Part shown: piece by piece, positions 4,033 to 53,470 of the stretch
Layout of the letters: every line of letters begins with the position of its first letter
Position numbering within the stretch: position 1 is the stretch's first letter
Virus record (IMG/VR): IMGVR_UViG_3300044296_000239
Reading direction: 5' to 3' (one strand)
Source of the DNA: a virus
Taxonomy: Duplodnaviria; Heunggongvirae; Uroviricota; Caudoviricetes
DNA: 64,000 nucleotides
Notes under the pieces: generated by a model
Database searches by the model: none
The model's input: only the letters and a program-made list of their open reading frames with translations
What the model was told of the DNA's origin: nothing
Program-made: the position numbers and the translations under genes

Positions 4033-5963
4033 TATACAAACCTATTTGTTGTTGTGTAACCAATACCCGATTGAGAAGCTCCAGTTGCAATAGTATCAAT
4101 TGTAGGTGTAATGTTAACTAGTGACATATCAACTTCTAACAATTGTTCTCTCTTAGGAGCAATATCATCAGATGCTGGAATAGTACTAAATGAAATATAT
4201 GATAAATTGTTTAGTAATGAATCAACTAAAAGATCAATCAAGACTACTTTACCAGTATCAGCATTAATATAACCAACATCTGTGTTTACAACAACTTTAC
4301 TATTATCTGCAATAGTATACATTTGTAACACGTGTGTAGCGCCTTCACCCAAATGTGTATTAACTTCTCCAACTTTTAGCACACGATCTTCAATATACAC
4401 AGTTTGACCATTGTGGACAAATGCACTAGATTTGATGATTGGTTCATTAACATTAGCACGAGAACCAAAAATAGGCGCTGAAAATTTTAATTCATAACGT
4501 TTAAATGTACCTAGTGTTGGTACTAAACGCTTTTGCATATAAAGTCTAATAGTAGAACTTAAAATGCCAGTATCAGAATTATCAATTAAGCCTAATAGAC
4601 GTGAATGTCTAAATACGCCATCAAATTTTTTCAATTCATTATTATTAAAATTATTAATAGTATTATAAACAATAGTAGCTAATTGACTAGACGTTGAATC
4701 AGTAGCATTAGGATTATATTTAAAAAATACATCTAAATACAAATATGTGTATTCTGGATCTACGATTACTGGACTAATTGAAACTACATTCTTTGGTTTT
4801 AAAATGCTATCGATAATGTATGATTTTTCTACATCATCTAAAAAATCAGCATTTCTTGGCTTAACACAAATATATGCTTTGCCATATTGAGGAGGATCAT
4901 TTTCTTCTCCACCCCAAACCGTCACAGTTTCCACATCTCCATAATTATTTGATATCATAGCCTGATAGTCAGCTGATGTCACACATCTGTTTTGTGAAAG
5001 ATATGATAGCGGTGCATTAAATTTAATTGAAGAAATATCTTCATTTCCTGCTCCACCGATTGACTTATTTAACACAGATAACGTAATATCTGTGTTTCCT
5101 GAAATAGTATCAGCCAGTGAAAACACACTAGCGCCGTTTGCGGCAACACCATTTGTACTTAGCCATTCCAATGTTACAACATTTCCACCCACAAGTTGTT
5201 TACCAACGGTTCCATCACCAAAATAAACTTCATATTTTCCATCAAGACCTTCTTGTAAAAAATATGCTTGAGTGTCGCTTTTTACTGTTGTGAAATCAGT
5301 AGCAAGAGTATATACATCTGCTTTTGTTGATACGCTATTTTCTTTTACTTTTACAATTAGTGTAGAAATATCAGCGTTTATATCTGGGATTTCAAAATAG
5401 TGTCCGTTATCAAAAGAATCAACGGTATATTGTATATTTTTAATACTACCTTCACTAATTTTTACATTCTCAAATCTATAAACATTATAGTATGTGGTTG
5501 GCAATCCGGTTTGTTCATTTGTGATTGTAACATCTTGAGGAACTATTGTTTTACTATCTAAAACGACGAAATTATACTGATTATCGCCCACAGTTGACAC
5601 AAAGCGTGTTCCTCGTTCTAATGTTAGAGTAAGAGGAGATCCAGCTGGGGAATTTACATCAAAATTAACAATTGAATATGCCGCAGAAGCAGATCTTGGC
5701 ACATATGATAACATCTTTGCGAGTGAAACAACGTTGTTTCGACGTTCGGCGCTATCTAAAAATACTTCATTCATTGCCATATTAGCATTAATAGCATTAT
5801 AATGAGTATTATAAGCTAAAATATCTAAAAGCACAGACATTCCTGACCCATCAAAGTCATAGTCGGTGAATTTACCTTTATCTTGTTGTGCTTTTAAGTA
5901 AGATTTGAAGTTTTCCTTAATTTGGAAAAAATCTAACTCTGTTACTTTTAGGTTAGATGCCAT
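4032..5963 (-). CDS. baseplate wedge protein, gp6-like
   Basis: 643-aa ORF immediately downstream of the gp25 homologue; T4 gp6 is about 660 aa. Confidence 0.55.
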   Translation of the reverse strand: MASNLKVTELDFFQIKENFKSYLKAQQDKGKFTDYDFDGSGMSVLLDILAYNTHYNAINANMAMNEVFLDSAERRNNVVSLAKMLSYVPRSASAAYSIVNFDVNSPAGSPLTLTLERGTRFVSTVGDNQYNFVVLDSKTIVPQDVTITNEQTGLPTTYYNVYRFENVKISEGSIKNIQYTVDSFDNGHYFEIPDINADISTLIVKVKENSVSTKADVYTLATDFTTVKSDTQAYFLQEGLDGKYEVYFGDGTVGKQLVGGNVVTLEWLSTNGVAANGASVFSLADTISGNTDITLSVLNKSIGGAGNEDISSIKFNAPLSYLSQNRCVTSADYQAMISNNYGDVETVTVWGGEENDPPQYGKAYICVKPRNADFLDDVEKSYIIDSILKPKNVVSISPVIVDPEYTYLYLDVFFKYNPNATDSTSSQLATIVYNTINNFNNNELKKFDGVFRHSRLLGLIDNSDTGILSSTIRLYMQKRLVPTLGTFKRYELKFSAPIFGSRANVNEPIIKSSAFVHNGQTVYIEDRVLKVGEVNTHLGEGATHVLQMYTIADNSKVVVNTDVGYINADTGKVVLIDLLVDSLLNNLSYISFSTIPASDDIAPKREQLLEVDMSLVNITPTIDTIATGASQSGIGYTTTNRFV

Positions 5964-6394
5964 TATCGTAATCTCTCTAATATGATTGTTACTGTGCTAA
6001 CTTGTTCTGTAGCTATAACTTGAAATGTAAGTGATACATTATATGCATTATTGTCAATGTCATCACTAATGTCTATATTTTGTACAATAACTCGTGGTTC
6101 AAAGTTATCGATTGTGCGTTGTATAGCCATCTCTATGTCATGCATAGTGATTGGATCAGCTAATTCAAATAATAATCCTCTAATTCCAGAGCCAATTTCA
6201 GGTTGAAATGGTCTTTCCTGAAAGTTAGTTTGCATTAGATTTCTTACTGAGTTTTTAATAGCTTCAACATCTTTTAGTGGATTTATATCTCCGCTAATTG
6301 GATTAGGTTTAAAAAGCAAATCTAAGTCGCTATGAACTACAGAGCTTATAATAGACGCTGGGGATGAAGAATCTGATGGGTTTTGAGTACGCAT
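5963..6394 (-). CDS. 25: baseplate wedge protein gp25 (GPW/gp25 family)
   Basis: 143 aa; motifs IKNSVRNL...RPFQPEIGSGI...FEPRV match recalled T4 gp25 (IKNSLLGI...RPFDPEFGCDL...YEPRI). Confidence 0.8.
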   Translation of the reverse strand: MRTQNPSDSSSPASIISSVVHSDLDLLFKPNPISGDINPLKDVEAIKNSVRNLMQTNFQERPFQPEIGSGIRGLLFELADPITMHDIEMAIQRTIDNFEPRVIVQNIDISDDIDNNAYNVSLTFQVIATEQVSTVTIILERLR

Positions 6395-6405: not shown

Positions 6406-7737
6406 TTATCCATTGAAGGTATTATATGCTTTTTGAGCTAATTCTACGCGTTTATTATATCCAATTACAATTTTAGTTGCATCTTCATTACTCTTGATAG
6501 GTCTTCCAAGATTAACCAACGCTGCACATGCGCCCCAATCTTTCTTATCTGCATAAGAAGCAATATTGACAGTCTTATAATACCAGCATCCTGTTTCTAC
6601 AGCAATATTTTTATCAGTTACTACTTGATCTGGATTAGTAACTAATCTATCATCACCAAAAAATACCTTTGATGCGCGTGTATAGTTATCTTTACCCGTC
6701 AATTGTTTAAGACCTCTACCTCTATATTTGTAGCCTTCTCCTGTTTCTGGAGGTCCATTTAGCATACGATTACCGTAAATTACATTTGCAATCGCTTCCT
6801 TACCTTTAGCTACTAGAGCTTGAGCATCCTCCAAGGTTGGAAAGCGTTTTTTACCTGGATTTAATGAATTGTATAGGAAATTGGCTCCATAATTACAATT
6901 TTCTTCTAAAAGTTTCCAATTAGTTTCTACTGTAACATTTGCACAGAACGCAGCTACACGTTCTGGAGTGGTAATATTATACTTTGGTAGCATTTCACTT
7001 AAATAACTATGCCATTTTGCAGCTTCAGCACCACACGCAGCTTGTAATTTATCAGCTGTAAATGCAAAGGTAAAACCTCCAGCTGGAGGTGCCTTTGGCT
7101 TAGATTCTACAACTGGATCTTTTTGAGGTTGTTTTGGAGGATCCGGATTAACTGTAGGAGTTTGTGGAACAGGAACTACTACTTCCTGTTGTTTTTGTGG
7201 ATTTTGTGGATCTACGATTACTTGTGTTTCAGTAACTTCAGGAATTTCTAAATTTGGAACACCTTTACATATATCTCCAACAATAGATTCAATATTTAAT
7301 TGAGATAACTGTTGCTGTGCTTCTTGAAATGCTTTTCCAAGCTTATCATTTAATGCTGCTAGTCCAGCAAATATATCCTTATCACCATCTACTGTTAATC
7401 CAGCAGGTTTTGGTATTTTACCAATAACTTCGTCTAAATCTTGGCCAGCTTCTTTCATCGCTGCACCAAACTTTTGCTTTAGTTCGGCAACTTTAGCTTG
7501 ATATTCTTCTGGTGATAAATTTGGTAAATTAGCTAATTCTTGTTGTAAATTTGTTATTGGCACTTGAGGAATGTTTACTTCTGCAAGTTTACTTTTAATA
7601 GTTTCAGCTATATCTCCAAGATTTCCAATTGAATTGACGCCCGCAGCGATTTGTCCTTTCAATGAATCAATTGCGGCTTTAGCTTCATCGAGCGATGCAT
7701 TAATGCCGCAAACAGGACTTGATTTATTATCTGCCAT
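6406..7737 (-). CDS. baseplate-associated cell-wall hydrolase with C-terminal GH19 chitinase/lysozyme domain
   Basis: 443 aa; coiled N-terminal part, Pro-rich linker, then a GH19-like motif YKYRGRGLKQLTGKDNY with candidate catalytic Glu residues (VETNWKLLEENCNYG). Confidence 0.75.
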   Translation of the reverse strand: MADNKSSPVCGINASLDEAKAAIDSLKGQIAAGVNSIGNLGDIAETIKSKLAEVNIPQVPITNLQQELANLPNLSPEEYQAKVAELKQKFGAAMKEAGQDLDEVIGKIPKPAGLTVDGDKDIFAGLAALNDKLGKAFQEAQQQLSQLNIESIVGDICKGVPNLEIPEVTETQVIVDPQNPQKQQEVVVPVPQTPTVNPDPPKQPQKDPVVESKPKAPPAGGFTFAFTADKLQAACGAEAAKWHSYLSEMLPKYNITTPERVAAFCANVTVETNWKLLEENCNYGANFLYNSLNPGKKRFPTLEDAQALVAKGKEAIANVIYGNRMLNGPPETGEGYKYRGRGLKQLTGKDNYTRASKVFFGDDRLVTNPDQVVTDKNIAVETGCWYYKTVNIASYADKKDWGACAALVNLGRPIKSNEDATKIVIGYNKRVELAQKAYNTFNG

Positions 7738-7738: not shown

Positions 7739-8989
7739 TTAATTTAACTCTACTTTATCTGCTAATACTTTGAACGTTGGTCCAGCATTAATATTAAGTG
7801 CTCCACTAACATTAATTGTCATACTAGACTTACAATTTAAAATCCAGTCCGATTGAGAACCAAAATCTAAACCATCCTTTGATAAAAACTGTTGTGTGGA
7901 ATTAGTAGACATCGATTGTGCACCATTTGAAAACATACTATATGTTGAAAGATACATCTGATCAGCTTTACCAACAACAGTCAATCCACTAGTACCACCA
8001 ACAGATTCAGTTTTATCAACGTCTACTAACAACGTTTGATTTTTACCAACTCTACTTAAGAAATCGCGTTTTACGTTACGGTTAAAGTTTCCAACTACTT
8101 CCATAAAATCATTGCCAACAATTTTTGTATGACGATTACCGTGTACCTTTAAATGATAATCACCTCTAACTTCAGTTATTAAATCGCCTTTAACTAATAA
8201 ATGAGCAGCACCTTCAACAGTTACGCTTCTAGATCCACGAACTAAAATGTTTTCGTCATGAACTACTATTTCAAAATTATTTCCAGAAACTTTGGTTACC
8301 TTATCTCCATCTGGAAATATTTCATGCCAAGTACCAGCTGGATGATACTCGACAATACGAGCACCGTTTGGTGTATCATCAATTTCATGTACTATGCCTT
8401 GCTCAGATTCATGTACATGAACATATGGATACATACCACCAGCACCATGTCTTGGTTCAGGTTCATTCCAAGTCTTGCGTACATCTTCAGTACCTTCAGA
8501 GGCTTTAGTATCAACGGTATCTAATGTTGGTTTAGATGATTTTTCAATTCCTGTTATTCTCTCATGATATCTAGAATAATAGGATTGATGCGCATTCCAT
8601 TTTTCTCTGGCCACATAACTAACATCAGTGTCATTGTGCCAACGAGGATATACTCCATAGAAATCTTTAAATGCTTTTTGTTCATCTTTCGGTTGAGTTG
8701 GATAACCATGAATAGATCCCATAACGATAGGATCTTGCATATTTTCACCATCTGCAAAAAAACCTACTACCCAAGATCCTTCAACTAAACCTGTTGGAGA
8801 AAAACCAACGCCTGAAATAGAAGCTGATGTACAAGGCATCATAGTATGAGCCCATGGTAAATTTCCAATATTAATTTTGGAAAGATCATCTGTATGTAGA
8901 CCAAATATACGAACTCGTACACGACCAAGCTTTTGAGGGTCATCTCTATCCTCAACTACGCCAGTCCACCAATGCATTAATTGTTTCAT
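7739..8989 (-). CDS. 5: baseplate central spike protein, gp5-like N-terminal OB-fold
   Basis: N-terminus WTGVVEDRDDPQKLGRVRVRIFGLHTDD is typical of the gp5/gpV/VgrG OB-fold; this homologue has no lysozyme domain. Confidence 0.75.
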   Translation of the reverse strand: MKQLMHWWTGVVEDRDDPQKLGRVRVRIFGLHTDDLSKINIGNLPWAHTMMPCTSASISGVGFSPTGLVEGSWVVGFFADGENMQDPIVMGSIHGYPTQPKDEQKAFKDFYGVYPRWHNDTDVSYVAREKWNAHQSYYSRYHERITGIEKSSKPTLDTVDTKASEGTEDVRKTWNEPEPRHGAGGMYPYVHVHESEQGIVHEIDDTPNGARIVEYHPAGTWHEIFPDGDKVTKVSGNNFEIVVHDENILVRGSRSVTVEGAAHLLVKGDLITEVRGDYHLKVHGNRHTKIVGNDFMEVVGNFNRNVKRDFLSRVGKNQTLLVDVDKTESVGGTSGLTVVGKADQMYLSTYSMFSNGAQSMSTNSTQQFLSKDGLDFGSQSDWILNCKSSMTINVSGALNINAGPTFKVLADKVELN

Positions 8990-10248
8990 TCGCTCTTTCT
9001 CACCTTCTTACCTAAAGAATCACGAACAACGTCTATAATATTCACATATTTTCCTGCAGACATCTTGTGATGAACGTTAAGAACTAAATATTTTCCACTC
9101 AAATATTCATTATCTTCTCTTGTATTACCATAACTAGATGGCCTATTTCTATCTACAATAAATTCAATAACTTTACCAGCACTTAAATCAGCTCTTCCAC
9201 GAACAGATAAGGTTAATTTATTAAGAGTTAATTGATAAACAAATGCATCTGTTTCTAGTTTTGTATATTCAGCAGCACTATTATAATTGCCTACTGGTTT
9301 ATCGCCAAAAGCTTTTGTGTTTTTATTAATAGTATAATGAACTGCATCATATTCTGTTATTTTTTTATCTTCAACTTTAAAATCCGGATTAACAAACGCT
9401 TGTTCGGCTAAATGAGTTTTTTTCTTAAAATCATTTTCATAATTATATTGTACAAATTTATATGATTTTGTTGCAATATCAACAACCCACATACCAGAAC
9501 CAAAAGCTCCTCTTAATGTATTTTTATATGTGTTAGCGTAATCTTTAAAGTCATATTCAAAAGCAACATTATATGTTGCAGATTGATTATCAGCATCATC
9601 TTCTGCAGTTGAACCACCCTTATGAACAAACTTATTATATGTTTTCTTTTTAAACATAGTTTCATATGATTCAAACATAAAACCATCTTGGAATGTTTCA
9701 TAAAAAGCAAATGGCATCTTCGAAGACGTCATAGCTCTTTTTGCTATCCAATCAATTGCATGAAATGGATTCCAATTTGGAATGACTAAACCATAATTTC
9801 CAATTGTTTTTTCTTTTACGTTTAATTTGCTTCTTAAATAGTCTTTTGTTATTTTTTCAATTGCTGTATCTAATGTACCATCATACGCACGAGACACTAG
9901 TAATAAACTATTCATCATTTGCTCTGGAGTAATTAATTTCATTACATAAAGTGCAGCCTGATTATTAGCTCTAACAAAGTTTGTTATAGAACCAACATAA
10001 AATACTCTTTGTATTAGATTGTTGCCTTCCATTATAGTTAAATCAACTTTTTCTTGGCCAATAATCGGTAATGATTCCATCAAATTGGAAGAATCAACAA
10101 TTGTTAAATCTGCTTTAATATATGGAGACAATAAAGATTCATAGATATCAACGCCTGATATCAAGTCTTTAAATTCATATGAATCACCATTAGATGAAAC
10201 AATCTTAGCACTTACTATCGAATAATCTAATTTACCTAATTGTGCCAT
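8986..10248 (-). CDS. baseplate hub protein (gp27-like by position; uncertain)
   Basis: 420-aa ORF whose stop overlaps the gp5-like start. Confidence 0.5.
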   Translation of the reverse strand: MAQLGKLDYSIVSAKIVSSNGDSYEFKDLISGVDIYESLLSPYIKADLTIVDSSNLMESLPIIGQEKVDLTIMEGNNLIQRVFYVGSITNFVRANNQAALYVMKLITPEQMMNSLLLVSRAYDGTLDTAIEKITKDYLRSKLNVKEKTIGNYGLVIPNWNPFHAIDWIAKRAMTSSKMPFAFYETFQDGFMFESYETMFKKKTYNKFVHKGGSTAEDDADNQSATYNVAFEYDFKDYANTYKNTLRGAFGSGMWVVDIATKSYKFVQYNYENDFKKKTHLAEQAFVNPDFKVEDKKITEYDAVHYTINKNTKAFGDKPVGNYNSAAEYTKLETDAFVYQLTLNKLTLSVRGRADLSAGKVIEFIVDRNRPSSYGNTREDNEYLSGKYLVLNVHHKMSAGKYVNIIDVVRDSLGKKVRKSE

Positions 10249-11918: not shown

Positions 11919-11926
11919 TATTTATA
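11919..11926 (-). promoter_or_regulatory. T4-type late promoter TATAAATA
   Basis: rc of tatttata; about 35 nt upstream of the 10976..11884 start, in a divergent intergenic region. Confidence 0.45.
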
Positions 11927-13646: not shown

Positions 13647-14366
13647 ATGTCTGGATTACCTATCGTCCTTAATACGGCGAAGTATGAAGTAGAGTTACCA
13701 ATTAGCAAGAAGAGGATCGAGTATAGACCGTATCTTGTTAAAGAAGAAAAACAGTTGATGTTGGCTATGGAGTCGCAAGACCCTGCAACAATCATGAAAA
13801 CAGTACAAGATATCATTGAAGCTTGTACATTTAATAAAGTTAAAGCGAAGACGCTTCCGACTGCAGAATTAGAACTACTTTTCTTAAAGCTTCGTTCTAA
13901 ATCAGTTGGTGAAACGTCTAAAGTTGGTTATAAGTGCTCTAGTTGTGGCACAGTAAACCAACTAAGTGTTAATCTAGAGGAAGTTACCATTGACATGGGA
14001 GATGAATCTAGAACTAACAAAGTAATGATCACTGATAGTGTTGGTGTTATGTTGAAATACCCAACAACTGATGAAGTCATGAAGATCATGGCTAGTGGAG
14101 ATAAGACTGATATCAAGACTATCTTTGCGTTAGTAACATCATGCATTGAATCTATCTTTGATAAAGAAAACATTTATGAAACAAAGAATTTAGAGAAGAA
14201 AGAAATCGATGCATTTGTCGAGTCTTTAAACTCTAAGCAGTTTGAAAGCATCAAGGACTTCTTTGAAGGAATCCCTAAGCTTAGAAAAGATGTATCATTT
14301 GATTGCGAAAAATGTGGAACCCATAATCCATTAGTGTTAGAAGGTTTACAGAATTTTTTCGGATAG
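13647..14366 (+). CDS. zinc-binding protein (two CxxC pairs); possibly a baseplate hub assembly factor
   Basis: 239 aa; CSSCG...CEKCG motifs; RBS AGGAG upstream. Confidence 0.6.
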   Translation: MSGLPIVLNTAKYEVELPISKKRIEYRPYLVKEEKQLMLAMESQDPATIMKTVQDIIEACTFNKVKAKTLPTAELELLFLKLRSKSVGETSKVGYKCSSCGTVNQLSVNLEEVTIDMGDESRTNKVMITDSVGVMLKYPTTDEVMKIMASGDKTDIKTIFALVTSCIESIFDKENIYETKNLEKKEIDAFVESLNSKQFESIKDFFEGIPKLRKDVSFDCEKCGTHNPLVLEGLQNFFG

Positions 14367-14559
14367 CTCTCTCACACGATAGTCTTGAGAACCACTTCAA
14401 GACTAACTTTATCATGATGCAGCATCACAAGTATAGTCTTACTGAGCTTAATGAGATGTTGCCGTGGGAGAGAGAAGTCTACATTGCCATGTTAATTGAG
14501 TACATCAAAGAAGAAAACGAAAAAACTAAACAGCTTAATCAAAAGTATAAGGTTTAAGT

Positions 14560-16275
14560 ATGGGAAAAAAGAACAAGGGCGGAAAAGGATCCGGAGCTCA
14601 TAACCCTAAAACAGAGGGAGGGCCAGATTCTGTCCGTGGCAATATAGCTGCTCTCACGACAGAGATACAGAACACAAATAAGCTGTTAGAAGTATCTGTC
14701 GACTATGAACAGACATCATCATATGGTATCAAACTATTGACTAATGTGATCGGTGACATGGAGTCTAATGTCGCCAAGATCGTAGAGTTGATGACGGCTA
14801 ATCGCTTGAAGGAAAAAGAAGCGGACGCTGAACGTGCTAAGATGATGGAGGACATGTTCAAGCTAATGAAAGACAAGAAAGAGCCTAAGAAAGAAGAGAA
14901 GAAGGGTGACTTCTCCTGGCTTGGACTAGCAGCTTCATTGGTTGCAGGCTTGGTGATGGGCGGTGTAGCCTTTATCAAGAACTATATCAAGGGCTTAGAG
15001 GTATTTTGGACAGCTATGGCCAAAGCTTTTAAGGTCGACGGCATCATTACTGCTATCTTTACAAAGATTAAGAACGGGTTTACTTTCATACAAGAGCTAG
15101 TTACGGGCGGTTTCACTAAGGCTTGGGCTTGGTTGAAAGGCTTATTTGCCGAGATGAAGTGGTTAAAGTCCATTGAGGAGTTCTTTGTCGGCGTAGGGAA
15201 ATACTTGACTAAGATCTTTAACCTAGGCGAGATAGGCAAGGACTTTGAACAGTTATGGGCTTCCATCAAAGGTATATGGGAGATGATGGGCAAGCCACTG
15301 AAGTTCTTAGGCAAGATCTTTGGTGAAGGAGGAGGCGGACTATTGAGTTACTTTACTGACCTATTGTCATTCTTTAAGCCTCTCATGGGTTTCTTCAAAG
15401 GCTTAGGCGCGATCCTAGGTAAGTTAGCTCTCCCGTTACAAGTCATCATGTCTGTGTTTGATACTGTGTCTGGTGCACTAGATGGTTGGAACAAGACCGA
15501 AGGGACGTTCTTTGACAAGTTGACTGCAGCTATCAAAGGTGGTCTGACTGGGTTGGTCAACGGCTTGATCGGTGGGTTATTAGACCTATTGAAGGATGGC
15601 TTATCGTTCATATTAGACTTCTTTGGCATGAAGGATGCAGCAGCATGGTTAGACAGCTTCTCGTTCTCTGACATCTTCGCGAAGGGTATAGGTTCTCTCG
15701 TAGACGGCTTGATCGGTATGTTTAAGGACTTGATCTCCGGCCCAGTCAAGATGTTTGAGGCAGCGAAAGGCCTATGGGAAGGCAAGATCGATTGGACTAC
15801 CTTCTTAAAGCAGGCACTCGCCGGTTTAATCACTGCATTATTAGCTCCGGTTAACATGGTGTCCAAGTGGGCAGGGTTTGATTTAACTAAGAAGGCATTA
15901 GACTTATTAGGCTTGAATGATACTAATGCTAAGCCAGCGGCGGCCGCACCAGCAGCTGCAGCTGCGCCGACTCCTGCAGCAGAGACTCCCGCACCACCGA
16001 CTCCTGCATTAGTTGCTAAGGAAGCGCAAGCTCCAGCTCAGGCACAGGAGACGCTCCAGCAAGCTCAGGACCGTTTAGATAAGGCAGTCGCAGAGGGCCA
16101 GATGTCTAAGGCCGACGCGAATGTAGAGAAGATGAAGTTAGGTCTCCGTCCTAGCTTTGGTCGTGCTAACCAGAACTTTGGTAAGGATATGTCAGCTCCT
16201 GCTGTGCCTATCTCCTCACGTACTACGAACTATGACCCAGAGGACGCGATGGCAAGAGGCGCGGTGATGCCGTAA
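14560..16275 (+). CDS. tape-measure / tail-length determinator-like protein (gp29-like by size and composition; uncertain)
   Basis: 571 aa; Lys/Gly-rich N-terminus, many amphipathic Gly/Leu-rich helices, Ala/Pro-rich segment AKPAAAAPAAAAAPTPAAETPAPP; followed by a strong terminator. Confidence 0.45.
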   Translation: MGKKNKGGKGSGAHNPKTEGGPDSVRGNIAALTTEIQNTNKLLEVSVDYEQTSSYGIKLLTNVIGDMESNVAKIVELMTANRLKEKEADAERAKMMEDMFKLMKDKKEPKKEEKKGDFSWLGLAASLVAGLVMGGVAFIKNYIKGLEVFWTAMAKAFKVDGIITAIFTKIKNGFTFIQELVTGGFTKAWAWLKGLFAEMKWLKSIEEFFVGVGKYLTKIFNLGEIGKDFEQLWASIKGIWEMMGKPLKFLGKIFGEGGGGLLSYFTDLLSFFKPLMGFFKGLGAILGKLALPLQVIMSVFDTVSGALDGWNKTEGTFFDKLTAAIKGGLTGLVNGLIGGLLDLLKDGLSFILDFFGMKDAAAWLDSFSFSDIFAKGIGSLVDGLIGMFKDLISGPVKMFEAAKGLWEGKIDWTTFLKQALAGLITALLAPVNMVSKWAGFDLTKKALDLLGLNDTNAKPAAAAPAAAAAPTPAAETPAPPTPALVAKEAQAPAQAQETLQQAQDRLDKAVAEGQMSKADANVEKMKLGLRPSFGRANQNFGKDMSAPAVPISSRTTNYDPEDAMARGAVMP

Positions 16276-16378
16276 TGACATGGCAAGAGAAGAGACACTT
16301 AAGGATAACTATAGCTTGTAGTGTAGCGATCATCCTCGCGCTGACCCTACTATAACAGGCAGAGGGCCAAAAAATTCA

Positions 16379-16401
16379 GGGAGCTTGCGCTCCCTTTTTT
16401 T
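16379..16401 (+). terminator. rho-independent terminator, probably bidirectional
   Basis: GGGAGC-ttgc-GCTCCC followed by T7; near-identical to the element at 38579-38601. Confidence 0.7.
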
Positions 16402-16968
16402 ATTTCCCCAGGTAAAACATCCCTACCTTGACCATGGCTTCTGCGTGCTCCTTATTAACAGGCACTGGCACCGCGGCCCCATCTCTTATAGGATCCCCGT
16501 TAAATAGTGTATCCCCTAACAGGCGTGGGAAGCGGGCACCCCAATCTGCGATCCACTGCATGTCCTGTTCCTCTGCCCAAGGAGAATGCTCACTCATAGG
16601 AGGAGAACCAATATAATACTGCACACCATCCCACTCATCGACTACTCTGACTATACCAACTGTAGACCTACCTGAGAACCAAATAACTTGCATACACTGC
16701 CTTTATCAAAAGATATATCTGTATTATACCATAGAAATAGTCTGTTGTACATTGTAAAGTTATCTAAGACTATTGTAAAGCAAACAATGTACTATTGTAA
16801 AGTTAAACCCTGGGGATCGCTGTGGGCCCAGGGGGGATTTTTCCCTGGGAAGCGACTGAGAATCTTTGTGAGACAGACGTTGGCTTTAACTGAAAGGGTA
16901 ACCAATAGATGGTCTCCTATAAGTATGGAACCTTATTAAAGGGTTCCTTATAGGGTACTGCTACCCCC

Positions 16969-17187
16969 TTACAGAGACATCACGTGTTTGATTACTTCAT
17001 CAGCTTCTTTGAAACCTGAGGCCTCGACTGCTGCCTCAATCATCTCATCATATTGCTCTTGCATATCAGCCATCATGCGATCTATGATCTGTCTCTTACG
17101 GCTACCGAGACTATACGGTTGTGTCCATCGGGCACCGTTCTGATAGTAGTGTGGTCTCTTCTCATTCGGGTTCATACTCACCTCCAT
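16969..17187 (-). CDS. small hypothetical protein (GC-rich island)
   Basis: 72-aa ORF; GGAGG RBS; overlaps the stop of the upstream small ORF. Confidence 0.45.
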   Translation of the reverse strand: MEVSMNPNEKRPHYYQNGARWTQPYSLGSRKRQIIDRMMADMQEQYDEMIEAAVEASGFKEADEVIKHVMSL

Positions 17188-17189
17188 CC

Positions 17190-17334
17190 ACCAATTCGGT
17201 CAATTCATTATCATCTATCATGTCCGATACGTCATCCTCTGACATATGTTGTAGGCACAGTAGGCATATCTGCTCATAGGACAGTACTCCCTCATCCAGC
17301 AGCTCGATCAATCGGTTAGTCTTTGCCCTACTCA
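17190..17334 (-). CDS. small acidic hypothetical protein (47-57 aa)
   Basis: MSRAKTNRLIELLDEG...; ATGA overlap with the upstream ORF; below the ORF-track size cutoff. Confidence 0.4.
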
Positions 17335-17335
17335 T

Positions 17336-17476
17336 CTGTTCACCCCATCCTTAACACACCGGATAGCTAAGCCCGGGGAGAGTAAGCCTACTATGCAGAT
17401 GATTACTCCCAGCAGACACATATACATCCGTGCCTCGATCATGTCTGTCACTGCGTTGAATAAGTTCTTAAACATA
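17336..17476 (-). CDS. small membrane protein (about 47 aa)
   Basis: MFKNLFNAVTDMIEARMYMCLLGVIICIVGLL...; RBS GGAGAGG; ATGA-coupled to the downstream ORF. Confidence 0.4.
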
Positions 17477-17489
17477 AATCCTCTCCAGA

Positions 17490-18416
17490 TTAGTTAGTCA
17501 AAACATAAGTTGCCAAGTCTTTGTAGTCCTTGGGGTTAGCTGCACGGATCTTAGCTACAGAGATGAGCGTACGGAGACTGATCTCCTTAGCTTCGTCCTT
17601 AACTTCGCGAATAAGAGCCAAAGCGTCTTGCTTGATCTGAGAGTCATATTCAGGCATGAACTCTTCAGAGGCAGCGATGTGCTCCATACGATCGATCTTT
17701 TGATCGTCTGTCATGGACAAATCGATCATCATAGAACGTGAACGGATGGCTTGGTCGATCTTGTCTTGATCCAAGTTACTGATGAACACGATACGACCTT
17801 TGAACTCGAAGCTGCGTGGCAACTCATCGTCCTTGCCGAAGGACTCAGCGTTCCAAGAGATGATACGCTTAGAGTAGCTGTCCAAAGCGCCTTTCAACAA
17901 GTTAAGTGCTGTAGGGTCTTTGAGGATCGAGTCACAATCATCGAACACGATCGTCGCATTTTGGTTCTCGAACAAGGTACGATAGAGACCTTTAGGAGTG
18001 GAGTAACCTTTAACTGTGACAAATACTTTGTTCATGTGGATCGTAGCGCCAACAGGCAACTTTTGAACGACCTCGCTGAAGTCCTCGAGACCATTGGCCT
18101 TCAAGGTCTTCATTACGGTATAAGTCTTACCTAGACCGCCTTGACCGGTGATCACAGTGGAAGGCTGAACGCCCGTAGCGACCATGCCAACGATCTTCTC
18201 CACGAAACCAAAGCGTTGGTTGATGCCAAACTTCTCAGCGGATGCAGGCTTCTGCATCTCTTCGATCTGCTTGAAAGTGGCCTTCTCGCCAGTGATCTGC
18301 TTGTACATGTACTCGATGTACTGCTGTTTGGTAGTAGTGAACTTCTGACCATTGATCGAGCACTTGAACTTGCCTTGAGCCTTATCGAAGCTGATGATCA
18401 CTGAGACGTCTTTCAT
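17490..18416 (-). CDS. AAA+/P-loop ATPase
   Basis: Walker A GQGGLGKT, Walker B IVFDDCD; start trimmed to MKDVSVIIS, which has an AAGGAA RBS. Confidence 0.7.
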   Translation of the reverse strand: MKDVSVIISFDKAQGKFKCSINGQKFTTTKQQYIEYMYKQITGEKATFKQIEEMQKPASAEKFGINQRFGFVEKIVGMVATGVQPSTVITGQGGLGKTYTVMKTLKANGLEDFSEVVQKLPVGATIHMNKVFVTVKGYSTPKGLYRTLFENQNATIVFDDCDSILKDPTALNLLKGALDSYSKRIISWNAESFGKDDELPRSFEFKGRIVFISNLDQDKIDQAIRSRSMMIDLSMTDDQKIDRMEHIAASEEFMPEYDSQIKQDALALIREVKDEAKEISLRTLISVAKIRAANPKDYKDLATYVLTN

Positions 18417-18457
18417 ATATTTCCTTAAGTGTGTGTGTTTTTTCAATCTATGGGTAG

Positions 18458-21529: not shown

Positions 21530-21530
21530 A

Positions 21531-28862: not shown

Positions 28863-29079
28863 TCTTCTTTTTCAAATAACCTAAATTCATCCCTTCAGCT
28901 TCAAGCTTTGCTTTAATGGGATTACTCAATAACTTCACAATGTCCTCAGGATCGATCATACGCTCTTTGCAGATATCAATTACTGCATCGAGGTATGTTC
29001 CTCGATCCTTAGTCACTCGCTCTTGAATTAGATTCGAGAACGACTTCTTTGTGAACATTCCGTCTGGTTGTTCTGACAT
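28843..29079 (-). CDS. late-transcription coactivator gp33-like (tentative)
   Basis: 78 aa; the C-terminal pattern KERMIDPEDIVKLLSNPI...KKNELTFD loosely resembles gp33; consistent with T4 order 33-59-32. Confidence 0.4.
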   Translation of the reverse strand: MSEQPDGMFTKKSFSNLIQERVTKDRGTYLDAVIDICKERMIDPEDIVKLLSNPIKAKLEAEGMNLGYLKKKNELTFD

Positions 29080-29564
29080 TTTTCAATTGCCCTATAATAA
29101 ATGTGGCTACCAATAGTGGTTACCTTTTCAACGCCTCTCCAACCTGGATTGACATACGTTGCATGATAGAATGTTGATCCTTGTGTAACGTCTACTTGTC
29201 TGTAGTAGTACATCTTCAAAGCTTCTTGCACTGCTTCAAGAGATTCGTGCCATCTGCTTGCTTCTTTAGCGGGTAAATTACCCATCAACTTTCTATCACA
29301 TGTCCAAGAGAATTGACAAACTGTCTTCTCTGTTTCTGGATTTTTGTTTTTCTGATAAACTACTTCACATGCTTTTTTTGGAAAGCCGTTTGCGTTCATC
29401 CTATTTAATACTACATGCGTCACAGCAATCTGTGACATCTGCGAATCTCCATACGCTTCGTAGTATGCATTACGTGTTAGACAATATACATCTTGGTCAT
29501 TTAATGGTATCGGATTGATTAAAGCCGACAGCCACGCGGTGATCGCGACTAATATTTCTGTCAT
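29028..29564 (-). CDS. SleB/CwlJ-family cell-wall hydrolase (Hydrolase_2-like) with signal peptide
   Basis: 178 aa; N-terminal hydrophobic leader; NAYYEAYGDSQMSQIAVTHVVLNRM resembles the SleB core. Confidence 0.5.
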   Translation of the reverse strand: MTEILVAITAWLSALINPIPLNDQDVYCLTRNAYYEAYGDSQMSQIAVTHVVLNRMNANGFPKKACEVVYQKNKNPETEKTVCQFSWTCDRKLMGNLPAKEASRWHESLEAVQEALKMYYYRQVDVTQGSTFYHATYVNPGWRGVEKVTTIGSHIYYRAIEKCQNNQTECSQRSRSRI

Positions 29565-38782: not shown

Positions 38783-39001
38783 TTATTTTCCTTTCGATGA
38801 AAATTTTTCTGAAGCTGTAAATCCTAAACCAGCTACTACTATATACATCATTGAATCAAACAACGCTGGTGTAACTTTATGACCAAGAGTATCAGCCACA
38901 AATCCACCAGCACATAACAAGAATGACAAGAGAGTAATAACTCTTTTTGAAGAAACAGTCCCGTTATCTCCATCTTGTAACATACTTGATAACCAATTCA
39001 T
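38783..39001 (-). CDS. small two-TM protein, holin-like
   Basis: 72 aa; two hydrophobic helices, charged C-terminus; lies in the candidate lysis cassette. Confidence 0.4.
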   Translation of the reverse strand: MNWLSSMLQDGDNGTVSSKRVITLLSFLLCAGGFVADTLGHKVTPALFDSMMYIVVAGLGFTASEKFSSKGK

Positions 39002-39002: not shown

Positions 39003-39527
39003 TTATAACTCTGGTTGTGGTGGTTGCACAGGCATTGGTTTACCCGTTGAACTCATTACAACTTGCGGTGTGAAGTTGGCAACTGGTGCTTGAATCACTA
39101 CAGGTTGTGGAGGAGGAGTTGGATTTAAGATAGCAGCTTGTGCCAATGTATTTTTCGCTGCAGCATCTGCATTTGCTTGTGCTTGCTTTTGCGCTTCTAA
39201 CATTGCCTTTTGATCTTCTGGTTTTTGACCAGCTAACATGATACCAGAGAGAGTACCAGTTAAGAACGTCGCGATAGGTACAATCAACTCAAAGAATTTT
39301 TGGTCGATAGGACTAATCGCATTCAGTGGTTGTGTAACGAAGATCAATGAATACAAGACAACGAATACGATTCCGAATAATGTAAGTGTTAGACAAATGC
39401 CGATGAAAAATTTTAATCGAGCCATCAGCTGCTCTTCTGTGTATATGAAATTATTTTCCACAGTTGGCTCCTTGATTAGTAGGTTGTACACTAATTGCTT
39501 TACTTTGTTGAGTAGTATCTTTATCAT
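39003..39527 (-). CDS. membrane protein with Ala/Gln-rich helix and Pro-rich C-terminus (i-spanin-like)
   Basis: 174 aa; TM FFIGICLTLTLFGIVFVVLYSLIFV; then AMLEAQKQAQANADAAAKN...PPPQPVVIQ. Confidence 0.45.
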   Translation of the reverse strand: MIKILLNKVKQLVYNLLIKEPTVENNFIYTEEQLMARLKFFIGICLTLTLFGIVFVVLYSLIFVTQPLNAISPIDQKFFELIVPIATFLTGTLSGIMLAGQKPEDQKAMLEAQKQAQANADAAAKNTLAQAAILNPTPPPQPVVIQAPVANFTPQVVMSSTGKPMPVQPPQPEL

Positions 39528-39738
39528 CTGGCATTCCTAATCTAGGGTCTCTTCCACCCTTAAAAACATGTTCTGGACAAGTTCTCGTCACGTCACATAG
39601 TGGTTTCTTACACATCTCTTTATCCCAATTGTGGGGATCTTGACATGGGTATCTAAATTTATCTTCGCTAAAAATTGCTAATCCTAATGGAAATAGTAAA
39701 AGCAATAATAGCCATCTTACTAGCTTTATATCACTCAT
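39451..39738 (-). CDS. small secreted Cys-rich protein (o-spanin-like position; no lipobox)
   Basis: 95 aa; signal peptide; 6 Cys; its 3' end overlaps the downstream gene in another frame. Confidence 0.4.
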   Translation of the reverse strand: MSDIKLVRWLLLLLLFPLGLAIFSEDKFRYPCQDPHNWDKEMCKKPLCDVTRTCPEHVFKGGRDPRLGMPDDKDTTQQSKAISVQPTNQGANCGK

Positions 39739-39739: not shown

Positions 39740-40405
39740 TTATGCTCCCATTACATGCAGAGCGTGTTGATAGTGGGCAATTCGATCTTCTAGACCGATG
39801 AATCCGCCATTAATCGCTTTTGTTAATCCTTTGATATCACCTGCATCTGCAAATTTATTTAGGTTATTATTTTCCCAGAACCAACAAGCAGATTGTGCGG
39901 CACCTTCAAACGTTTGTAGGTATTCTGCGGCTTCTTCTACTGGAATATCTAATGACGCAGCAAACCAAGAATAGTTTGATTTACCAGTCAATTGGATTAG
40001 ACCTCGACCACAGTAACGATATCCGTCACCTGTTTCAGGTCCACCGTTACCCATACGGTTTGCATAAACTAAGTTAGCAATTGCTTCTTGTTTATTTGGC
40101 TTAGAAGCATATTCATTTGCCATCTCATCTGTCGGGAAATACTTCGGAAAGATTTTACGAAGTGTTACAGCTTTATAATTTAAGTTTTCCTTAAGAACCA
40201 TAAACCCACCGGATTCATGTGCGCATTGCGCAATAAATGCAGCAATTCGCTGTGGTGTGTTTATCTCATATTCTGGTAGCAATTGTGCTAGTGCACGGTG
40301 CCAATGGTCAACGTATGGATTCTTTGGGAGAAGCTGTTTTAATTGTTCTAATGATAATTCCATCTTCACTCCAATATATGTTGAATAATTCATGTCATAT
40401 GACAT
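39740..40405 (-). CDS. GH19 family endolysin
   Basis: 221 aa; YRYCGRGLIQLTGKSNYSWF GH19 core. Confidence 0.75.
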   Translation of the reverse strand: MSYDMNYSTYIGVKMELSLEQLKQLLPKNPYVDHWHRALAQLLPEYEINTPQRIAAFIAQCAHESGGFMVLKENLNYKAVTLRKIFPKYFPTDEMANEYASKPNKQEAIANLVYANRMGNGGPETGDGYRYCGRGLIQLTGKSNYSWFAASLDIPVEEAAEYLQTFEGAAQSACWFWENNNLNKFADAGDIKGLTKAINGGFIGLEDRIAHYQHALHVMGA

Positions 40406-40518
40406 GTTACTATTTATATGTTACATATATCGGGAGCGAAAAAAGGGGACAAACGTCCCCTTATATCTATCCCCTGGCCCTTATAGATCTATCTATAAAA
40501 AGCCATTTCTCTGCAGCG

Positions 40519-41832: not shown

Positions 41833-42435
41833 TTAATTTACGTTTTCTGTCCATGTTGCAACAATATATTTTTCATTAGAAATAGGAGGATTGCCGCGAT
41901 GAGTATGTGTATATCCAACAGGGAAAAGAACAATTCTTCCTTTTTTTGGTTTAATTCTTCTAGGATAATACAAAAATTCAGTTTCTCCACCCTCGTCAAC
42001 ATCATTAAGATAAATCAAAATGGCCAATATTCTATTACTATCTTCTTTTCCACTATTTTCATAATGCCATACATGATATCCACCACCTACCGATGTTCGT
42101 TGAAGTCTATGACCCCATAATCCATAGCCTCTAGACAATAAAACATCATATTTTTTATTATATTCATCAATACATTCACGAATGGCTTTATTCATGACAC
42201 CAGCTAAGAATGTATTAATGACTTTTACATCATCCAAATGTTCTTCATGTAAAAAATATGTTGTATCATCTTTGTGAACTTTTTCAATTCTTTCAGCTTC
42301 TTGTCTACTAAACGTACGTTTATTAGTTAATGCCCATTGATCCACATAATGGTAATGATTAATCAATTGTTCACAAATAGTTTCTGGCAAAATATCATCA
42401 AATACACCAATAAAATCTTGAATATCACTTTTCAT
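41833..42435 (-). CDS. 2OG-Fe(II) oxygenase, prolyl-4-hydroxylase-like
   Basis: 200 aa; GGETEF, HTHRG and C-terminal strand GRIVLFPVGYTHTH; paralogue of 48077..48622. Confidence 0.65.
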   Translation of the reverse strand: MKSDIQDFIGVFDDILPETICEQLINHYHYVDQWALTNKRTFSRQEAERIEKVHKDDTTYFLHEEHLDDVKVINTFLAGVMNKAIRECIDEYNKKYDVLLSRGYGLWGHRLQRTSVGGGYHVWHYENSGKEDSNRILAILIYLNDVDEGGETEFLYYPRRIKPKKGRIVLFPVGYTHTHRGNPPISNEKYIVATWTENVN

Positions 42436-43034
42436 TTTAATTTGTCTCTCATTTCTTCATATAATTCTGTTCGCTTAGCTGCATTGATAACTCCACCGGT
42501 GATTCGCTTAGTCATACCGATCATATCTTCAGCATCAGCATAAGCATTTAAATCTTTAATCATCCACACCCAACATGCTGAATGTACAGCGCCTTGTGGT
42601 GTGATGATATAATCTAATACATCTTCTATGCCAAAACCTGCATGTTCTGCAAATTTTCTATATGAATCTTTTCCAGTGATATGTAATAAGCCTCGTCCTT
42701 TATAGCGAGAACCATCACCAGATTCTTCACTACCATTTCCAAATCTATACGCATATATTCTATTTGCGATAGAATTTTCTTTATGCATATATGCTTCAGC
42801 AATCACTTGATTATTAAAGTGAGCAGGAAACAATATCATTAAATTGTTTCTGCTATAATTTAGATTTTCTTCAACGCACCTGAACTCTAACGACTCATAT
42901 GATGCTTGTGAAACAAATGCCGCCACACGCTTAAGCGTATTAATCTTATACTTATCAAAGAATAGCTTGAATGCCTCTATCCAAACTTTTTCTTCGATTA
43001 CTGATTCAAGCTTATCATAATATAATTGTAACAT
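42432..43034 (-). CDS. GH19 family lysozyme (third GH19 paralogue)
   Basis: 200 aa; SRYKGRGLLHITGKDSYRKF. Confidence 0.7.
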   Translation of the reverse strand: MLQLYYDKLESVIEEKVWIEAFKLFFDKYKINTLKRVAAFVSQASYESLEFRCVEENLNYSRNNLMILFPAHFNNQVIAEAYMHKENSIANRIYAYRFGNGSEESGDGSRYKGRGLLHITGKDSYRKFAEHAGFGIEDVLDYIITPQGAVHSACWVWMIKDLNAYADAEDMIGMTKRITGGVINAAKRTELYEEMRDKLK

Positions 43035-43037: not shown

Positions 43038-43445
43038 TTAACTTAAAATAAATGCTGTTGCAAATGATGCTTTGCTTGCATTGCTTACGTTTGTAGTCTG
43101 TGCAGTATTTACTTGGTCGGTGTAACTCTTGATCTGTGCTTCAAACTCTGACATAAACCCTGCAGATAAACGAACCTCGATCTTTGTACCTTTAGGCCAA
43201 TCGAGTGCAGTAGATCCGTATTGTCCACGCACTAATGTAAACGTTTTAGTAGGTCTATCTATGTTTGTAATCTTTACTTGTTCGCTCAAACTGTTATCGT
43301 CATTGGCAAGTGTAGCTACAGCTGGATCAGTGATGCTAATTCCAGTTGGAAATGATGATACAGACTCAACAACAACATAAACGTTTGCCGCTGGTAATGC
43401 ATCAAATAATTGGGTGCCTACGTTATCTGCGTATTTTAATGCCAT
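43038..43445 (-). CDS. hypothetical protein (between the GH19 and PAAR genes)
   Basis: 135-aa ORF. Confidence 0.5.
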   Translation of the reverse strand: MALKYADNVGTQLFDALPAANVYVVVESVSSFPTGISITDPAVATLANDDNSLSEQVKITNIDRPTKTFTLVRGQYGSTALDWPKGTKIEVRLSAGFMSEFEAQIKSYTDQVNTAQTTNVSNASKASFATAFILS

Positions 43446-43446: not shown

Positions 43447-43773
43447 TTAACCTAACTTCTCTATACCGAACTTTGAAATACCAAAACGAGTTGGACCAGG
43501 ATTTGGATAAAAACCAGTTAGCACATTAGAAGAACCTGTAATTGGATGACCACACGATGCTAAATCGCCCGTCCTACATATGGCTATACCACAAGCAAAC
43601 ACGTCAGCAGCGGCTTCTTCCATAACTGGTGCATCATGTGGTGATCTACCATGACCTGCAATAGCAGCGCCTTTTACAACAATTGGTGATCCATTTACAA
43701 ACACAGTAGGAGCTAGATTGCCGACTACTACTCCGCCCGCTTTGTCAACACCTACTCTAGAAATTCCTGGCAT
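43447..43773 (-). CDS. PAAR-repeat spike-tip protein (gp5.4-like)
   Basis: 108 aa; VFVNGSPIVVKGAAIAGHG...ICRTGDLASCGHPITGSSNVLTG matches the PAAR pattern. Confidence 0.55.
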   Translation of the reverse strand: MPGISRVGVDKAGGVVVGNLAPTVFVNGSPIVVKGAAIAGHGRSPHDAPVMEEAAADVFACGIAICRTGDLASCGHPITGSSNVLTGFYPNPGPTRFGISKFGIEKLG

Positions 43774-43802
43774 GAGATATCCTTATAATATCTCTATTTA
43801 TA

Positions 43803-53469: not shown

Positions 53470-53470
53470 T

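Follow-up and report, generated by a model that had tools for sequence, protein, structure and literature searches.

A conserved anchor protein carries a predicted wall-degrading GH19 domain between the gp5-like and gp25-like genes of an uncultured T4-type phage

Results

Wall hydrolase genes in a T4-type genome

The window, a stretch of 64,000 nucleotides of Caudoviricetes DNA (IMG/VR record IMGVR_UViG_3300044296_000239), encodes four predicted cell wall hydrolases: three with GH19 domains, here called copies 1 to 3, and one SleB-like protein. An initial annotation of the window had proposed all four, and each of the open reading frames (ORFs) was found exactly where it had been placed, on the minus strand. 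A tblastn search of the window returned three GH19 genes, one SleB-like gene and no extra fragments. Our main subject is copy 1, a 443-amino acid (aa) protein encoded between the gp5-like and gp25-like baseplate genes.

Annotation with PHROG and Pfam gave a T4-type architecture across the window. The plus strand encodes gp4, gp2, a tail tube-like protein and gp26. Divergent from these, the minus strand encodes gp48, gp53, a protein in the position of gp27, a gp5-like protein, the GH19 fusion, gp25, gp6 and two wedge proteins, and gp32, gp59 and gp33 flank the region of the SleB-like gene. The baseplate region had no megablast matches among 50,697 phage records and is therefore without a close cultured relative. 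The cultured phages with the most similar proteins are Methylophilales phage Melnitz and the Pelagibacter phages HTVC008M and Mosig, with about 40% identity in gp6. Judged from these similarities, the source of the window is an uncultured T4-type myovirus whose closest cultured relatives are in the Melnitz/HTVC008M pelagimyophage group.

A GH19 fusion protein in the gp5-gp25 slot

The 443-aa protein (6406..7737, minus strand) consists of an anchor, a linker and a GH19 domain, as defined from its ORF, Pfam, PHROG, AlphaFold and Foldseek. The anchor (aa 1-166; 7240..7737, minus strand) is helical and, in an alignment of 55 homologues, has an invariant Cys10-Gly11 and Cys157...Pro161. A beta-hairpin and a proline-rich, low-confidence linker follow (aa 167-226; 7060..7239, minus strand), delimited from the AlphaFold model and homologue lengths. 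The endolysin-type GH19 domain occupies aa 227-443 (6409..7059, minus strand), and E271, E279, Y321, G340-R-G, Q345 and T347 map to its active site. In the AlphaFold model, built with a family alignment, predicted local distance difference test (pLDDT) values are about 60-87 in the helical N-terminal domain (aa 12-157), about 47-67 in the linker (~192-226) and above 90 in the GH19 domain, and the strands of the hairpin lie at 163-191.

The initial annotation had described a separate baseplate-module protein with a C-terminal GH19 domain and had suggested Pfam searches, which agree with it: PF00182 scored 29.7 bits in copy 1 (cut-off 25.5), and PF07486 was above its cut-off in the SleB-like protein. 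Copy 1 matched phrog_181 ('endolysin') with an E value of 9e-80. The best Foldseek matches of the model were the GH19 endolysins 9eoi, 8p8e, 4ok7 and 9ms6, with target template modelling (TM) scores of 0.72-0.84, and TseP (8xcl), a type VI secretion system (T6SS) effector that has a GH19-like lysozyme fold, was also among the matches.

About 100 full-length homologues of copy 1 were found, all metagenomic and 37-99% identical; IMG/VR contains a single full-length one. In homologues of 520-560 aa the extra length consists mainly of long repeat- or proline-rich linker inserts. E271, E279, G340-R-G and T347 are invariant in the 55 aligned homologues. The gene order gp48, gp53, gp27-like, gp5, fusion, gp25, gp6, wedge, gp8 is strictly kept in the larger contigs, down to 37-44% identity, and the hydrolase slot between the gp5-like and gp25-like genes is also kept in contigs L004-L006, L102 and L103.

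The gene directly upstream encodes a gp5-like central spike of 416 aa (7739..8989, minus strand). As the initial annotation had claimed, this spike is without a lysozyme domain: Pfam found only Gp5_OB and Gp5_trimer_C, and the protein aligns with residues 7-132 and 378-492 of T4 gp5. The middle segment of 245 residues that holds the T4 lysozyme domain (133-377) corresponds to about 53 residues in the window spike. It matches the spikes of Pseudomonas phages Milchi and Astolliot in one piece and T-even gp5 in two. A T4 gp5-type protein has its lysozyme inserted between the OB and beta-helix domains of the spike; here the enzyme is encoded by a separate gene and the spike has no enzyme domain, so copy 1 would act like the gp5 lysozyme while falling outside that family.

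On the other side of the spike gene lies a 420-aa hub or tail protein (8986..10248, minus strand; phrog_350 'tail protein', E 1e-85). Its gp27 assignment is positional; a protein is found in the same place in Milchi and in metagenomic relatives, and further Pfam and PHROG searches gave nothing useful for it. Directly downstream of copy 1 is a gp25-like baseplate wedge gene (5963..6394, minus strand; PF04965, 52.9 bits; phrog_261). The baseplate operon to which copy 1 belongs begins with the gp48-like gene, and a late-promoter-like box, TATAAATA, lies 35 nt upstream of that gene (11919..11926, minus strand).

The anchor domain and its exchangeable cargo

A HMMER profile of the 166 N-terminal residues of copy 1 was compared with 1.84 billion representative proteins (E <=1e-3) and retrieved 85 proteins. 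The hallmarks of the family are kept in them, namely an N-terminal CG, SLQxEL, KFGxxVxDLD and C...PNxE. Outside the GH19 family, most are 280-590 aa long and have other C-termini. A scan of 59 of the proteins found GH19 in none and VanY in one (E 1.5e-25), and most had an unrecognised C-terminus. Two of the cargo variants occupy the gp5-gp25 slot of their contigs: P0250, in which the anchor is joined to VanY (L103), and P0255, in which it is joined to an M15-like or 'endolysin' domain and followed by PAAR (L102). In P0253 and P0296 the anchor is followed by a region matching the middle of proteins called 'baseplate hub subunit and tail lysozyme', and in P0241 by a region of 'baseplate hub' or peptidase type.

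The same cargo is found on other carriers. In Melnitz, Cr30 and pf16, the P0255 cargo recurs in features that bear the name 'baseplate hub subunit and tail lysozyme'; it is also present in PAAR-annotated features of PA5oct-like and Vibrio phages, and in Milchi and Astolliot. In the cultured phage Milchi, which has the whole synteny in common with the window, the gp5-gp25 slot holds a 231-aa helical protein and a PAAR-Peptidase_M15 fusion. In Melnitz, gp5 is split (L001, 4962-8310) into a protein with OB and VanY-like domains and a beta-helix protein with a C-terminal M15-like domain, after which comes PAAR. Matches in the BFVD structure library included gp5 of Delftia phage PhiW-14, through its GH19-like domain, and, along the entire length, one viral protein of 560 aa from UniProt. 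Since different cargo rides on the same anchor in the same slot, and the same cargo rides on spike or PAAR proteins elsewhere, the wall-degrading module of the puncturing device appears to be interchangeable. From these comparisons, the gp5-gp25 slot reads as a cargo-swapping locus in which, in this clade, the module rides on a dedicated anchor protein.

The Milchi PAAR-Peptidase_M15 fusion is annotated simply as 'endolysin' (within 5079-7947 of L002), and it is likely that the annotations of both Melnitz and Milchi mask tail-associated enzymes. The Milchi 231-aa ORF was considered as a stand-alone anchor and set aside as too weak a match (BLASTP E about 0.003), leaving a positional analogy. 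The anchor had no tblastn matches among the phage records, either when searched alone (E up to 0.1) or within the 560-aa homologue P0079.

All of the anchor family, distant cargo variants included, has the two cysteines that correspond to Cys10 and Cys157 (window positions 7708-7710 and 7267-7269, minus strand). Cys10 always precedes Gly and lies 3-10 residues from the protein start. The pair could be a metal site on a symmetry axis, a disulfide or a processing site.

Active sites and relationships of the three GH19 copies

In the numbering of the SPN1S enzyme, the conserved positions of GH19 endolysins are H48, E49 (proton donor), E58 (base), Y106, G123-R124-G125, Q128 and T130 (water coordination) (PMC8547705). 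Within the endolysin subfamily, His48 is present in 93% and Gln128 in 92% of members, and Val takes the place of His48 in 2.3% (PMC8547705). The corresponding glutamates of PaGH19Lys (9eoi), a muramidase, are E51 and E60, and its activity is abolished by E60Q (PMC12329726).

An alignment of the catalytic glutamates, suggested in the initial annotation, showed that Glu, Glu, Thr and the GRG motif are kept in all three copies. Copy 1 has Val before the first Glu, then E271, E279, Y321, GRG from G340, Q345 and T347 (GRGLKQLT347). Copy 2 has the canonical His, then E64, E73, Y114, GRG from G133, Q138 and T140 (GRGLIQLT140). Copy 3 has Tyr at this position, then E47, E56, Y94, GRG from G113, H118 and T120 (GRGLLHIT120). 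The two glutamates have the canonical Glu-x8-Glu spacing in copies 2 and 3 and are one residue closer in copy 1 (Glu-x7-Glu). The substrate-binding pair His48/Gln128 is therefore complete in copy 2, reduced to Gln in copy 1 and replaced by Tyr and His in copy 3; these two positions are frequent in the subfamily and do not define it. No copy has lost the catalytic triad, so the loss of residues that the initial annotation had named as counter-evidence is not seen.

Pairwise identity among the three GH19 copies is 36-40%, with copies 2 and 3 at 40%. In a neighbour-joining tree, the copy 1 family was monophyletic in 60/60 bootstraps, and copies 2 and 3 were grouped in 0/60. The long branch made up of copy 3 and its close relatives falls in that part of the stand-alone family which contains P0171, a GH19 protein of a distant relative, and copy 2 is in another subclade. 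The copies had been called paralogues: they are homologous, but these identities and separate clades do not fit duplicates that arose recently or within this genome, and a recent GH19 duplication was rejected. Membership of the GH19 family holds for all three, for copies 1 and 2 by matches to structures in the PDB and for copy 3 by homology (phrog_181 and its identity to copy 2). By fold and catalytic residues the domains are assigned to the endolysin subfamily, and muramidase activity is predicted for them.

Copy 2 and candidate lysis genes

Copy 2 (39740..40405, minus strand; 221 aa) is a probable endolysin. It matched phrog_181 with an E value of 7e-74 and scored 21.2 bits with PF00182, below the cut-off of 25.5. 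In phmmer comparisons it matched the solved GH19 endolysins 9eoi, 9ms6, 8p8e and 4ok7 with E values of 1e-38 to 4e-32, whereas those for chitinases of plants and bacteria were about 1e-3. The orthologues of copy 2 have lengths of 204-210 aa and identities of up to 77%. Directly upstream is a perfect TATAAATA box (40411..40418, minus strand); the distance is 6 nt to the first ATG and 48 nt to Met15. Because the alignment with the orthologues begins at residue 15 and the box is so close to the first ATG, the real start is probably Met15 at 40363, which would give a protein of 207 aa.

Three small genes follow on the minus strand. The first, o95 (39451..39738), encodes an N-terminal transmembrane or signal segment and a Cys-rich domain and has an orthologue in L010 with 60% identity; the second, o174 (39003..39527), encodes a protein with two transmembrane-like segments (34-72 and 78-100) and a Pro-rich tail (phrog_25359, function unknown). 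Both are candidates for lysis-associated proteins. The third, o72 (38783..39001), encodes a small membrane protein with hydrophobic segments, a holin-like candidate. Pfam and PHROG gave no hit for o95 or o72 and nothing useful for o84, and no lipobox spanin was seen. In another phage, L104, a two-transmembrane protein 56% identical to o72 (E 5e-24) is encoded directly downstream of a copy-2-type GH19. In L106, a copy-2-type GH19 is followed by a transmembrane/coiled-coil protein, a GTA_holin_3TM protein and a small secreted protein. An o174 orthologue is also found near the stand-alone GH19 of L010. The late-promoter-like box and the holin-like neighbours, which also stand beside orthologues, make copy 2 the likely endolysin among the candidates.

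Copy 3 and the PAAR operon

Copy 3 (42432..43034, minus strand; 200 aa) is a diverged stand-alone GH19 protein that matched phrog_181 (E 1e-49) and had no Pfam hits. It belongs to an operon headed by a gene for a 108-aa PAAR-motif protein (43447..43773, minus strand; phrog_281, E 1.6e-15; PF05488, 26.3 bits with a cut-off of 27). Between the two is o135 (43038..43445, minus strand), with a region resembling a tail fibre N-terminus (phrog_8469, E 1e-9), and a TATAAATA box lies 22 nt upstream of the PAAR gene (43795..43802, minus strand). The gene run is thus PAAR, o135, copy 3 and then a 2-oxoglutarate (2OG)-Fe(II) oxygenase. The order PAAR, o135, GH19 is kept in the close relatives L007-L009 and in the distant L010/L011, a 169,842-bp contig that also has an orthologue of copy 1 and a PAAR protein 83% identical to that of the window (L010).

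The single stand-alone GH19 protein of L010/L011, P0171, follows PAAR and o135 and is the positional counterpart of copy 3. It is 52% identical to copy 2 and 45% identical to copy 3. After it, L010 has a transfer-messenger RNA (tmRNA), a small secreted protein and an o84 orthologue, with an inverted o95/o174 pair nearby. Compared to an 81%-identical relative, copy 3 has a ratio of nonsynonymous to synonymous substitution rates (dN/dS) of about 0.09, similar to its neighbours, with dS near saturation. These values indicate that copy 3, though fast-diverging, is under purifying selection and is not decaying. In the simplest history, the resident stand-alone GH19 of the PAAR locus gave rise to copy 3, copy 2 and its partner o72 would have come from another phage lineage, and copy 3 then diverged fast. 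Copy 3 may be a second lysin with an altered substrate preference, or a spike-associated enzyme.

Several further features lie in this neighbourhood. The 2OG-Fe(II) oxygenase gene (41833-42435, minus strand) directly after copy 3 is also present in L007 and L009 and is absent from this place in L010/L011; a second 2OG-type gene (48077-48622) is 76% identical to a gene of L010. Between copies 3 and 2, ARAGORN found a permuted two-piece tmRNA (41315-41737, minus strand) with the tag ANDESYALAA, and Rfam found the same RNA as tmRNA_permuted (131.7 bits) and beta_tmRNA (122 bits). A counterpart occupies the same place in L010, with the tag ANDSVYALAA as read by eye. Two-piece tmRNAs have been reported in Melnitz-like phages (PMC9004378). 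The betaproteobacterial type of the best tmRNA match may hint at the host. Beside the tmRNA, a 150-aa protein (40837-41289, minus strand) has a signal-peptide-like N-terminus and Pfam matches to outer-membrane beta-barrel or porin families (OMP_b-brl, 31.9 bits). HTVC008M also has an annotated 'outer membrane porin', and L010 has a different small secreted protein in this position.

The SleB-like protein

The fourth hydrolase is of the SleB/CwlJ type, as the initial annotation had it (29028..29564, minus strand; 178 aa; PF07486, Hydrolase_2, 77.4 bits with a cut-off of 27). The Glu in the YGESRGE motif of Bacillus SleB (4f55), which we take to be catalytic, is matched in an alignment by E36 of the window protein, in YYEAYGD. 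Eight IMG/VR relatives (64-83% identity) keep the gene order o392, SleB-like, gp33, gp59, gp32. At its 3' end (29028-29079) the SleB-like gene shares 52 nt with the start of the gp33-like gene (28843-29079), and an overlap of similar size is present in all eight.

A signal peptide had also been proposed for this protein. Its N-terminus (MTEIL...) does include a 13-aa hydrophobic stretch with a Kyte-Doolittle score of 2.47, but it lacks a basic n-region and is not long enough to form a transmembrane helix. This uncharged hydrophobic N-terminus, M[TN]EIL...NPIPLN, is kept in the eight relatives, and a signal peptide is plausible but unproven. About 980 phage records, that of Melnitz among them, contain Hydrolase_2 genes. 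By its domain we place the SleB-like protein as a fourth wall hydrolase, unrelated to the other three, and by gene order its gene is fixed in the gp33/gp59/gp32 block of replication and late transcription genes.

Other features of the window

A 571-aa ORF of tape-measure-like composition (14560-16275, plus strand) follows gp26 and a 47-aa gp51-C-like ORF (14414-14557, plus strand). It had no matches in Pfam, PHROGs or the 50,697 phage records. The ORF sits where gp29 would be expected and is probably a highly diverged gp29 equivalent. From about 16.4 to 24 kb only short ORFs are present. The G+C content is 0.42-0.47 at about 14000-22000, compared to 0.31-0.41 in the rest of the window. ARAGORN found 24 densely arrayed transfer RNA (tRNA) genes at 52976-58863 on the minus strand, including an unusually long tRNA-Ile(tat) of 95 nt (54444-54538), and Rfam adds another at 54630-54702.

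Discussion

We think it probable that peptidoglycan degradation in this phage is divided among separate genes, with copy 1 used for entry and copy 2 for exit, beside two further wall hydrolases, copy 3 and the SleB-like protein. The domains, the catalytic residues, the synteny, the cargo variation and the selection are established from the sequence data. From these we infer virion incorporation, bond specificity and timing, as well as any role for copy 3 or the SleB-like enzyme. A host-range-related specialisation, which the initial annotation had raised as a possibility, is conjectural. Separate entry and exit enzymes had been suggested in the initial annotation, and conserved context supports this reading for copies 1 and 2: the former keeps its place in the gp5-gp25 slot, and the latter has a late-promoter-like box and holin-like neighbours. 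Copy 1 is most likely a tail-associated wall hydrolase that stands in for the gp5 lysozyme of T4, and gene position and analogy point to its incorporation into the virion. In the mechanism that we propose, the anchor would fix the 443-aa protein in or beside the gp27-gp5 hub. Contraction of the sheath would push the spike through the outer membrane, and the tethered GH19 domain would then cut glycan strands locally and let the tail tube pass. The gp5-gp25 slot would swap cargo, with relatives that keep the anchor carrying a VanY or M15-like peptidase. Copy 2, transcribed late beside the holin-like membrane proteins, would act as the endolysin.

Several observations weigh against this explanation. 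The placement of the 443-aa protein in the virion is argued from gene position and analogy. Copy 1 has Val where His is usual and a Glu-Glu spacing shorter by one residue, so that its activity or specificity could differ. The anchor has no recognisable fold or named homologue, a Foldseek search of the full model against the PDB gave nothing significant for it, and its likeness to the Milchi 231-aa ORF is weak (10.6 bits with the profile). Folded alone, it models poorly (pLDDT 57, predicted TM score 0.33), as would be expected of a domain that needs an oligomer or a complex in order to fold. For the exit enzyme, o95, o174 and o72 match no holin or spanin family in Pfam or PHROG, and the inverted o95/o174 pair of L010 is not adjacent to GH19. 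SleB-like proteins are annotated as endolysins in some phages, for example the homologue in Stenotrophomonas phage Moby, so an enzyme other than copy 2 could perform lysis in the window phage. Finally, the window contains seven TATAAATA boxes, compared to 7.35 expected by chance; for this reason only the placement of the boxes is used, as weak evidence for late promoters.

One alternative is that the 443-aa protein is a tail-lumen or tape-measure-like protein that travels through the tube with the DNA, with a C-terminal hydrolase as in some siphovirus tape measures. It would then be virion-associated, with another location and mode of delivery. The long helical anchor has a tape-measure-like composition, its distant homologues have weak matches to the helical families Baculo_PEP_C, apolipoprotein and PhageMin_Tail, P0250 has a VanY cargo that matches a tape measure PHROG, and tape measure and minor tail proteins are among the low-probability Foldseek matches. 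However, weak helical matches are typical of any coiled-coil-like sequence, and the protein is not the single long helical protein of the tail module that a tape measure would be. With about 166 helical residues in 443, it is short for a T4-type tail, and the 571-aa ORF already occupies the expected place of gp29, after gp26 and the gp51-C-like ORF. A tape-measure role is therefore unlikely.

We give even less weight to the alternative that the 443-aa protein is not packaged, but is a second late enzyme of lysis or assembly that merely belongs to the baseplate operon, with entry achieved by the spike alone. Some myoviruses infect without a detectable tail lysozyme, and PHROGs file the copy 1 family under 'endolysin'. 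Against this, even deeply diverged relatives strictly keep the gene between gp5 and gp25, the anchor there is joined to different hydrolases, and other phages have these types of cargo in physical fusion with spike or PAAR proteins. A soluble endolysin would also have no use for a tether and a conserved non-catalytic anchor.

Two further explanations are very improbable. That the three GH19 genes are redundant recent duplicates, with copies 1 and 3 decaying and one functional enzyme, could be suspected from the changes at their substrate-binding positions (His to Val or Tyr, Gln to His) and from the long branch of copy 3 and its lack of a Pfam hit, but this idea is largely refuted by the low identities, separate clades and intact catalytic residues of all three copies, by the invariance of those residues across the 55 homologues of copy 1 and by the dN/dS of copy 3. 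Least probable of all is that they are chitinases, auxiliary metabolic genes acting on chitin, as the Joint Genome Institute (JGI) name 'putative chitinase' and the Pfam title Chitinase class I would imply; this reading was rejected, since the matches to the endolysin subfamily are far better than those to chitinases, the best structural match, PaGH19Lys, is a muramidase (PMC12329726), and the genomic contexts are baseplate and lysis genes.

Returning to the division of labour between copies 1 and 2, each enzyme can be compared to known systems. The T4 gp5 tail lysozyme, like the role inferred for copy 1, digests peptidoglycan locally at the tip of a contractile tail during entry. The neighbourhood of gp27, gp5, gp25 and gp6 is the same, and the OB and beta-helix parts of the spike are homologous. 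In T4, however, the enzyme is a GH24 domain inside the spike, whereas in the window it is a separate GH19 polypeptide beside gp5, with its own anchor and a long flexible tether. The GH19 endolysins of known structure (SPN1S, 4ok7; PaGH19Lys, 9eoi; KTN6 gp46, 8p8e) have the same fold and Glu-Glu-Thr centre, and copy 2 is a canonical member. They are soluble single-domain lysis enzymes, from which copy 1 differs in its fusion to an anchor, its Val-Glu and its Glu-x7-Glu, and copy 3 in its Tyr and His at two substrate-binding positions. The SleB/CwlJ proteins and phage Hydrolase_2 proteins such as Melnitz gp77 and Moby gp194 have the same PF07486 domain and conserved Glu motif as the fourth hydrolase, which differs in having no peptidoglycan-binding domain, a short uncharged hydrophobic N-terminus and a fixed place in the replication and late-transcription block.

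Other phages also place wall-degrading domains on tail proteins. In distant T4-like and jumbo phages, the Milchi PAAR-M15 fusion, at the same locus, and the spike- or PAAR-fused peptidases of Melnitz, Cr30, pf16 and PA5oct likewise have an interchangeable module that moves between carriers, and so has gp5 of PhiW-14 with its GH19-like domain, but their carriers are spike or PAAR proteins and that of the window is a dedicated anchor protein. Jumbo phages of the phiKZ, EL and RSL2 type have GH19 toward the C-terminus of a structural tail protein (phrog_3201); these proteins differ in their length of 1000-2400 aa, in their unrelated tail modules and in being without the anchor domain. The T6SS effector TseP (8xcl) and other wall-degrading effectors borne by PAAR or VgrG resemble the arrangement proposed here, in which a GH19-like lysozyme fold is delivered by a contractile spike, and a PAAR gene heads the copy 3 operon. 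TseP is a bacterial weapon, not a phage entry device, and the association of PAAR with copy 3 is known from gene order.

Several wall hydrolases in one phage are ordinary, and tail-associated hydrolases, GH19 endolysins, GH19 in structural proteins and the exchange of cargo on spikes are already known. A literature search, of incomplete coverage, found no description of a lysozyme-less gp5 with a separate baseplate hydrolase in T4-like phages, or of the anchor protein. Within the literature searched, what is new is the carrier, a conserved anchor protein that occupies the gp5-gp25 slot and whose wall-degrading cargo is exchangeable. We can speculate further that the anchor is an undescribed, widespread hub component in a large aquatic T4-like clade, a universal adaptor for interchangeable cargo (GH19, VanY, M15-like and several C-terminal domains without known function), and also that copy 3, co-transcribed with PAAR, is a second enzyme delivered on the spike. 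The tail would then carry two muramidases, in the style of T6SS effector loading. We offer this combined proposal tentatively, as a possibility that we doubt more than we believe.

Whether the tube of a contractile tail crosses the cell wall is decided by tail-associated wall hydrolases, which are also mined as antibacterials. In a large branch of T4-like phages, most of them uncultured, the entry enzyme would be separate from the spike and would combine a conserved docking domain with exchangeable catalytic cargo. The anchor domain could serve as a marker for unannotated entry enzymes, including many anchor proteins with unrecognised C-termini, and the predicted entry and exit GH19 enzymes of one phage would be a natural pair for a comparison of specificity. 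The locus thus gives a concrete, testable model for the swapping of entry enzymes between phages.

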